Of a DNA stretch of 64,000 bases, positions 15,745 to 16,425 are shown piece by piece. Source of the DNA: a virus. Its lineage: Duplodnaviria; Heunggongvirae; Uroviricota; Caudoviricetes. The translations under genes and the position numbers were made by a program. Every line of letters starts with the position of its first letter. Position 1 is the first letter of the stretch. The notes under the pieces were generated by a model, which worked only from the letters and a program-made list of their open reading frames with translations, searched no databases and was not told the origin of the DNA. Location: the IMG/VR virus record IMGVR_UViG_2721755662_000004; one strand, given 5' to 3'.

Positions 15745-16062
15745 TCATGATATTACCTGGATTCCGTTTTTCTCTACGACTGAAAGAAGGCGAAGAGCGG
15801 CACCTCCCGGCCGTTTTACACCACGTTCCCAGTCTGATATCAGGTTTTTACTGACGTTGAGGTATCTGGCAAAAACAGGTTGAGACAGATGCTCTCGTTC
15901 GCGCAGTGCACGGATCCTTTCCGGAGACATTACCGGCGCTGGCTGGAGACAAGTTTCATCGAATTCTCGCATAGTCTGTTTCGTTACTGCGCCGATATCA
16001 TGAAGCGATTCCATCATTTCATGTACGGATGCAAGCGCATCACTGCGGTAATTTTTACTCAT
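15745..16062 (-). CDS. higA: HigA-like XRE-family HTH antitoxin
   Basis: 105 aa; C-terminal HTH (LSQPVFARYLNVSKNLISDWERG); strong SD; start overlaps the stop of the upstream RelE/ParE-like frame. Confidence 0.7.
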   Translation of the reverse strand: MSKNYRSDALASVHEMMESLHDIGAVTKQTMREFDETCLQPAPVMSPERIRALREREHLSQPVFARYLNVSKNLISDWERGVKRPGGAALRLLSVVEKNGIQVIS

Positions 16063-16425
16063 TGGGTACCTCCGTAAACTGACCCTGTAGAATCAGTTGT
16101 GCCAGTTGTTCATCTGTTAGATTGAGTACGTGAGGAGCCGCCTTCCGAAATGCACTTTCCGCAGTAGCGGTTATATTTTCACGTTCATTTTTTGCGTATG
16201 CATATACGAAAAAGGCCCTTGTGCCGACGCGATAGAAAATGATTGTGCGATAACCGCCAGATTTGCCGCCACCGACTCGTGGCAGACGTTGCTTGATAAC
16301 GCCGTTACCCAGGTTTGCTGAGATAAGCCCGTTATCAGCCTGTTTAACAATTTCGCGCAGTGATTGGTCGGATATTTTGTTTTGCGTGCAAATCGCTCAA
16401 ACCAGGCGTTTTTAAAAATGCGCAT
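16055..16425 (-). pseudogene. higB: RelE/ParE-superfamily (HigB-like) toxin disrupted by a frameshift
   Basis: ATG at 16425 gives MRIFKNAWFERFARK in one frame; the conserved body (...LGNGVIKQRLPRVGGGKSGGYRTIIFYRVGTRAFFVYAYAKNERENIT...) is in the -1 frame with no start codon; the shift lies in an A-rich tract near 16376-16381. Confidence 0.7.

Follow-up and report, generated by a model that had tools for sequence, protein, structure and literature searches.

Toxin-antitoxin (TA) modules of the Pfam family PF06296 encode toxins that are ribosome-dependent mRNases, with the toxin gene preceding the antitoxin gene (2025 review, PMC11980606). Among those with solved structures, the best match for both proteins of the locus described here is HigB-2/HigA-2 of Vibrio cholerae (PDB 5ja8, 5jaa and 8a0x; Hadzi et al. 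2017, PMC5416850), which shares this toxin family and likewise has its toxin gene upstream of its antitoxin gene. The catalytic residues of HigB2 are Arg51, Arg64, Tyr82 and Lys84, and the N-terminus of HigA2 is the part that neutralises the toxin (PMC5416850). The decay of TA modules has also been described. Toxin inactivation before antitoxin loss is reported to be the common pattern in a survey of Photorhabdus (PMC13617665), and in E. coli the ccdO157 system is subject to decay (Mine et al. 2009, PMC2654758).

The locus considered here lies in a 64,000-nucleotide stretch of viral DNA (the window), within the early-right or nin region of a lambdoid prophage that appears to be complete, with genes for integrase, bet/exo, repressors, replication, NinB/E/H, Q, lysis, terminase, capsid and tail. 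First-pass annotation had described a frameshifted RelE/ParE-like toxin beside an intact HigA-like antitoxin, and every part of that description is correct. With a probability of roughly 0.85, the locus represents a decaying higB2/higA2-type module with an inherited 1-bp deletion and a null toxin. Its features are collected in Table 1.

Table 1. Features of the toxin-antitoxin locus, with coordinates numbered from the first nucleotide of the window.
Feature	Coordinates	Strand	Remarks
Toxin pseudogene, HigB2-type (PF06296), whole	16055..16425	-	372 nt / 123 aa with the deleted A restored
Toxin start codon and codons 1-15 (MRIFKNAWFERFARK), frame 0	16381..16425	-	Identical to residues 1-15 of intact alleles
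A4 tract, site of the 1-bp deletion	16380..16383	-	A5 in intact alleles (CGC AAA AAC AAA ATA), from alignments
Toxin body, -1 frame	16055..16379	-	Without ATG, GTG or TTG; R47, R60, Y77 and K79 retained
Premature TGA closing the 84-aa frame-0 product	16171..16173	-	Read from the sequence
HigA2-like antitoxin, 105 aa, WP_000042397.1	15745..16062	-	N-terminal extension and C-terminal HTH; profile and structure matches
GGAGG Shine-Dalgarno	16069..16073	-	6 nt upstream of the antitoxin ATG; read from the sequence
Palindrome TAACAC-N3-GTGTTA, candidate operator	16448..16462		23 nt upstream of the toxin ATG
GC-rich hairpin, candidate bidirectional terminator	15709..15730		Between the convergent antitoxin and doc genes

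The toxin gene begins at a minus-strand ATG (16425-16423), and its first 15 codons are in frame 0. Beyond codon 15 this frame runs into an unrelated sequence (TKYPTNHC...) and then into the TGA at 16173-16171, giving a product of 84 aa, compared with 123 aa for the homologous full-length toxin. The toxin body is found instead in the -1 frame, as ...QNKISDQSLREIVKQ...GGGKSGGYRTIIFYR...FTEVPNE (also given as ...QNKISDQSLREIVKQADNGLISANLGNGVIKQRLPRVGGGKSGGYRTIIFYR...QGQFTEVPNE), up to a minus-strand TAA at 16057-16055. The 113 open codons of this frame, from the TGA at 16399-16397 to the TAA, include no ATG, GTG or TTG, and the open-reading-frame listing of the window contains no ORF in it; the rare ATT, ATA, ATC or CTG codons that do occur are not preceded by a Shine-Dalgarno sequence. 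The two-frame arrangement that the first-pass annotation reported, with a start and 15 codons in one frame and a startless body in the -1 frame, is thus confirmed. The same annotation placed the shift in an A-rich tract at about 16376-16381, which is correct as to the tract but not as to the exact position, since the deletion maps to the adjoining 16380-16383. There the window reads GCACGC-AAAA-CAAAATATCC where intact alleles read GCA CGC AAA AAC AAA ATA TCC, so that an A5 run aligns with A4, and the second A4 run (16375-16378) is the same in both. On these alignments the lesion is a 1-bp deletion in the A5 run at codons 15-16. The opposite reading, an extra inserted A, is ruled out by the alignment to intact alleles, in which the window has an A missing (A5 to A4).

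The family assignment of the toxin is clear from the profile searches. The toxin body scores 123.8 bits against PF06296 "RelE" (cut-off 27) over profile positions 15-120, compared with 157 bits over positions 1-120 for an intact homologue; the head and the body must therefore be two halves of one gene rather than a chance resemblance. The closest solved structure is V. cholerae HigB-2, with an E value of 0.003 over 54 residues. In a phmmer alignment to PDB 5ja9 and 5ja8, from which the catalytic residues were mapped by hand, R47, R60, Y77 and K79 lie opposite HigB2 R51, R64, Y82 and K84. The 1-bp deletion nevertheless splits the gene, leaving no continuous translatable ORF, and to judge from the sequence the toxin gene of the window is a pseudogene of the PF06296 (HigB2-type) family. 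PADLOC gave no match for the toxin, NCBIfam has no model for it, and the PHROGs families of the two proteins (phrog_5869 and phrog_2104) are of unknown function. A tblastn search of the window for a second toxin copy that the antitoxin could serve found none.

Intact alleles provide the reference state of this locus. In four loci (L003, L009 of strain HCP4S3_I4, L010 and L011) the run is A5 and the toxin ORF is continuous over 123 aa, and single-frame intact alleles are found in all three allele groups, those of the window's type being 96-99% identical to it. Between the three groups, intact toxins show dN/dS values of 0.02-0.06, which represent strong purifying selection and identify the continuous 123-aa ORF as the functional, selected state. 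The HCP4S3_I4 allele (WP_077168034.1), which is the closest intact one at 99.2% DNA identity, and the O157:H7 allele (WP_001217944.1), at about 84%, belong to the same locus type in the lambdoid nin or early-right region, and their antitoxin proteins are identical to that of the window or differ from it by one residue; both, however, combine A5 with a continuous 123-aa ORF, whereas the window combines A4 with a split one. If the missing A is restored, the toxin of the window differs from that of HCP4S3_I4 by one synonymous and one non-synonymous change (E89A). With so few differences the inactivation must be recent, and with all catalytic residues present and a single amino-acid change, the lesion could revert by a +1 replication slip. 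Comparison with intact homologues, which the first-pass annotation had proposed as a check, hence leaves its pseudogene reading standing.

A homopolymer run is a common site of indel errors in assemblies, and the intact alleles are longer by exactly one A. This is the basis for the other explanation that the first-pass annotation allowed, in which the true genome has A5 and a continuous toxin ORF and the frameshift is an error of sequencing or assembly. The distribution of the A4 allele leads to the rejection of this explanation, to which almost no probability can be assigned. The first 50 kb of the window are 100% identical to the E. coli FORC_069 chromosome (2471186-2521185), and A4 is present in assemblies from many laboratories and platforms, including FORC and NCCP strains, ML35, TOE17 and numerous O104:H4 genomes. 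It is also present in the isolated phage PhiR12_3 and in seven IMG/VR contigs (seven others have A5), and its flanking SNPs form at least three haplotypes. Such a number of haplotypes could reflect either recombination or recurrent deletion at the homopolymer.

A sample of 38 complete genomes, in each of which the toxin gene is 96% or more identical to that of the window, gives some idea of how far the allele has spread. The A-run deletion is the sole lesion in 10 of these genomes (eight 100% identical to the window and two sequence-checked) and is accompanied by a deleted C near codon 97 in a further 18, which comprise O104:H4 outbreak strains and relatives (two sequence-checked, 16 assigned from identical alignment scores). 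The A-run deletion is therefore present in about 28 of the 38 (12 verified by sequence or 100% identity, 16 by score), although these allele counts are inflated by clonal sampling, many of the genomes being O104:H4 outbreak isolates. Four genomes have other lesions (two sequence-checked, one assigned from an identical score and one, H101, from net length alone), and the remaining six have an intact toxin (four sequence-checked, two assigned from identical scores).

An A-rich tract at the junction of two frames also raises the question of programmed recoding, and a slippage site was among the possibilities mentioned in the first-pass annotation. In this case a -1 slip of tRNA-Lys on A_AAA, within A4-C-A4, would yield a small, regulated amount of near-wild-type toxin (N16T). 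The pairing would permit it, since a P-site tRNA-Lys shifting by -1 from AAA (16377-16375) to AAA (16378-16376) re-pairs perfectly; as read from both frames, MRIFKNAWFERFARKTK would then be followed by ISDQSLR..., the catalytic residues are all four kept, and a junction peptide such as FARKTKISDQSLR would be expected within a full-length toxin of about 14 kDa. In having two overlapping frames at an A-rich tract where tRNA-Lys could re-pair, the locus does resemble the -1 sites of dnaX and the IS3-family transposases. Unlike those sites, however, it has neither a heptamer nor a stimulator, its two-frame state is not conserved, and secondary lesions lie downstream. The zero frame reads CGC AAA ACA AAA TAT, which contains no X_XXY_YYZ heptamer and leaves just the single-tRNA A_AAA slip, and the tract is preceded by no GGAGG or other Shine-Dalgarno-like stimulator. 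The 90 nt downstream are no more stably folded than shuffled versions of them (-17.9 kcal/mol, shuffle mean -17.3, z -0.21), and as the downstream sequence is the same as in intact alleles, nothing has evolved there to promote shifting. Homologues are normally single-frame, and lineages with the A deletion have gained a second frameshift that a slip at 16378-16375 could not rescue. A two-frame arrangement shared by homologues would have argued against a pseudogene; this was looked for, and the norm among homologues proved to be a single frame. Functional recoding is accordingly considered very unlikely.

A different route to a toxin product is implied by the RefSeq annotation, in which PGAP assigns a 112-aa CDS (WP_226867305.1) in FORC_069 and PS2Canimalfeces12, with an ATT at 16393 as its start. 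Translation from this codon would give an N-terminally shortened toxin, and ATT is a permitted, if very rare, start in table 11. ATT initiation is, however, very inefficient in E. coli. The 20 nt upstream of this codon (AAAAACGCCTGGTTTGAGCG) contain no Shine-Dalgarno sequence, the codon itself lies within the frame-0 ORF under translation, and the product would miss positions 1-14 of the Pfam profile. Moreover, the choice made by PGAP differs among near-identical alleles (339, 297, 207 or 315 nt), which is typical of a homology-driven annotation workaround, and production of a short toxin in this way is highly improbable. Across 16055-16393 and the loci L001, L002 and L013-L015, the annotated CDSs encode proteins of 112 (ATT start), 68, 98 and 104 aa, none of them flagged as a pseudogene. 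These short non-canonical CDSs hide the pseudogene, and as a result, counts of "intact" TA modules in E. coli, including those of the O104:H4 outbreak strain, are slightly inflated.

The antitoxin gene (15745-16062, minus strand) is intact and encodes 105 aa, including an HTH domain. The gene starts at the ATG 16062-16060 and so shares 8 nt with the end of the toxin gene at TAA 16057-16055, an overlap also present in intact alleles, in agreement with the earlier description of an intact downstream antitoxin whose start overlaps the stop of the toxin frame. Residues 50-94 match HTH_3 (PF01381; 32.3 bits, cut-off 23), and residues 45-99 match HigA-2 (PDB 5jaa; E 7.9e-8), which is the nearest solved structure. 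The 45-residue N-terminal extension is almost invariant among alleles and does not align with the HigA2 N-terminus. The GGAGG upstream of the gene should allow the antitoxin to be initiated without translational coupling to the toxin.

The antitoxin gene is also a mosaic, as seen in L003, L010, L011 and PhiR12_3 (L008). The 5' third is common to all alleles, but from about codon 36 there are two divergent 3' types, one of 105 aa ending ...QVIS and one of 106 aa ending ...QAINV. In PhiR12_3 the frameshifted toxin is of the window's type but the 3' part of the antitoxin is of the other type, an indication that recombination has taken place inside the operon.

Upstream of the toxin, the palindrome TAACAC-N3-GTGTTA has no other match in the 64 kb, with 0 expected by chance. 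It was detected by a direct pattern search, as its 6+6 arms are below the length threshold of the general repeat search. The palindrome overlaps a possible extended -10 element (TGTTATACA), is kept in the 84% allele group and is degenerate in the 78% group. It is a candidate operator for antitoxin autorepression. Above its threshold, a sigma-70 consensus scan gave no promoter on the minus strand ahead of the toxin, so that promoter and operator can only be inferred at this position.

These features suggest how the module may have arrived at its present state. It appears to be a type II TA operon that forms part of the accessory cargo of an E. coli lambdoid prophage, in its nin region. Ribosomes starting at ATG 16425 would make the 84-aa nonsense product and halt about 110 nt short of the antitoxin gene, and with translation ending there, translational coupling would be lost. 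With a catalytic body that has no start codon of its own, essentially no toxin would be made, and the toxin product is presumably absent; a low level of toxin may nevertheless come from a -1 tRNA-Lys slip on A_AAA (16378-16375) or from ATT 16393. The antitoxin, with a strong GGAGG Shine-Dalgarno of its own, would remain producible and could continue to act through the upstream palindrome as a repressor of the operon promoter, and it is probably still expressed and repressing its own promoter. In the two-step decay that such modules usually undergo, this would be the initial step. Losing the toxin is harmless and relieves the carrier of a cost; losing the antitoxin first would be lethal.

The surrounding region is rich in genes of similar type. 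The locus is flanked by hokD/sok and Doc-family TA modules and by an isrK-C4-antirepressor control region, and three TA modules, hokD/sok among them, cluster within 2 kb. The hokD type I toxin gene (14646-14801) is accompanied by a full-length match to the sok antisense RNA (14477-14651, 110 bits). The Doc-family toxin gene (15209-15694, plus strand; TIGR01550, 122 bits, Fic/DOC) converges on the HigA-like gene, and the hairpin at 15709-15730 is common to both. It is preceded by a 59-aa ORF (15011-15190, plus strand; phrog_2208, function unknown, no Pfam match), whose position corresponds to that of a Phd-like antitoxin, and which may therefore belong to an uncharacterised antitoxin family. 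A second Hok/Gef-family toxin gene (44591-44731) lies in the prophage late region beside an Ail/Lom gene, according to the annotation of the identical FORC_069 record.

On the other side, upstream of the toxin, a divergent near-consensus promoter (TTGACA-18-TATATT) is found at 16493-16522 on the plus strand. Rfam matches above the gathering score are to c4-a1b1 targets (16516-16568), the IsrK sRNA (16529-16603) and the C4 antisense RNA (16630-16714). This C4/IsrK region (16493-16767, plus strand) leads into an ORF6N/P22AR antirepressor gene (16768-17433), and it constitutes a P1/P7-type immI-like antirepressor control region placed back to back with the TA promoter.

The A-run deletion of the window and its relatives is one of several lesions detected in this toxin. 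A deleted C near codon 97 is found in O104:H4 and in L012, L015, L016 and L031; L015 also has a deleted A near codon 91, L031 a 6-bp deletion and L016 an IS66-associated 5' truncation. In the 84%-identical, O157-type group, 51 of the 168 genomes have a G4 run lengthened by an independent +G. In L016 (E. coli NMBU-W12E19, NZ_CP042892.1 5150690-5152138), the 5' part of the toxin is replaced by sequence adjoining an IS66-family tnpA, and the antitoxin is intact. These further independent lesions in sister lineages, together with intact alleles at 96-99% identity, support the pseudogene explanation that the first-pass annotation had offered as one of its alternatives.

The antitoxin has a different history. 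All 15 toxin-dead loci examined that have the window's antitoxin type encode the identical protein WP_000042397.1; in the sister group, two copies with the +G encode WP_000042395.1, and in PhiR12_3 the dead toxin has beside it an antitoxin that is intact but belongs to the other allele type. Over the sequenced loci of the window's group, about seven SNP sites and four indel or IS lesions fall in the 372 bp of the toxin region, and three sites, every one of them synonymous, in the 318 bp of the antitoxin. These are small numbers from non-independent samples, but the comparison suggests that constraint has been relaxed on the toxin and has continued on the antitoxin.

It is possible, although unlikely, that the antitoxin is kept by positive selection because it protects the lysogen or phage from toxins, whether HigB2-type ones encoded by competing prophages or plasmids or the abortive-infection toxins of the host. 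Such an anti-addiction or anti-defence function is compatible with a toxin pseudogene, the anti-addiction concept is established, and as judged from the alleles it is plausible that the antitoxin left behind has such a role. Several independent losses of the toxin, spread over two allele groups, have left the antitoxin protein unchanged, and a module with a dead toxin and a live antitoxin circulates in PhiR12_3, an inducible phage. In addition, the N-terminal 36 residues of the antitoxin, in the segment that is toxin-neutralising in V. cholerae HigA2 (PMC5416850), are identical or one residue off between allele groups that show a difference of about 15% in their toxins. However, because the lesions are recent, the antitoxin may be intact just for lack of time to decay, and there are too few substitutions for a meaningful selection test, which makes selection and lag inseparable. 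Two copies of the locus occur in just seven of 217 genomes, and co-residence with a sister toxin must therefore be rare.

A broader form of this proposal is more doubtful still. In it, lambdoid phages would repeatedly drop a HigB2-type toxin and keep the HigA2-like antitoxin as an immunity factor of broad specificity, with the A5 and G4 homopolymers as preferred and possibly reversible breakpoints. If this were true, the targets would be HigB2 toxins of rival prophages or plasmids, or host abortive-infection systems. Toxin-first decay remains the favoured reading, and the locus on its own is of little importance, since it belongs to a known family and is present in hundreds of public E. coli genomes. 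It does, however, represent a compact natural series, with at least five independent toxin lesions and an antitoxin that is always intact, which could be used for testing selection on orphan antitoxins.

When compared with V. cholerae HigB-2/HigA-2, the module of the window shows both shared and distinct features. The two toxins align at the GGGKSGG loop and at all four catalytic positions (R, R, Y and K), and both antitoxins have an N-terminal extension followed by a C-terminal HTH. The relationship is distant, with a toxin E value of 0.003 over 54 residues and an antitoxin alignment over the HTH domain only. The copy in the window is prophage-borne, whereas HigB-2/HigA-2 is located in a superintegron, and its toxin, unlike HigB-2, is frameshifted and presumably silent.

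The process that is seen at this locus is ordinary toxin-first decay of a prophage TA module, a kind of event that has already been documented. As in ccdO157 and the Photorhabdus modules, small lesions kill the toxin while the antitoxin stays intact, and multiple independent lesions have arisen within one species. Those examples, however, involve another toxin family in a fixed chromosomal islet, whereas the module of the window resides on an apparently complete, mobile prophage.
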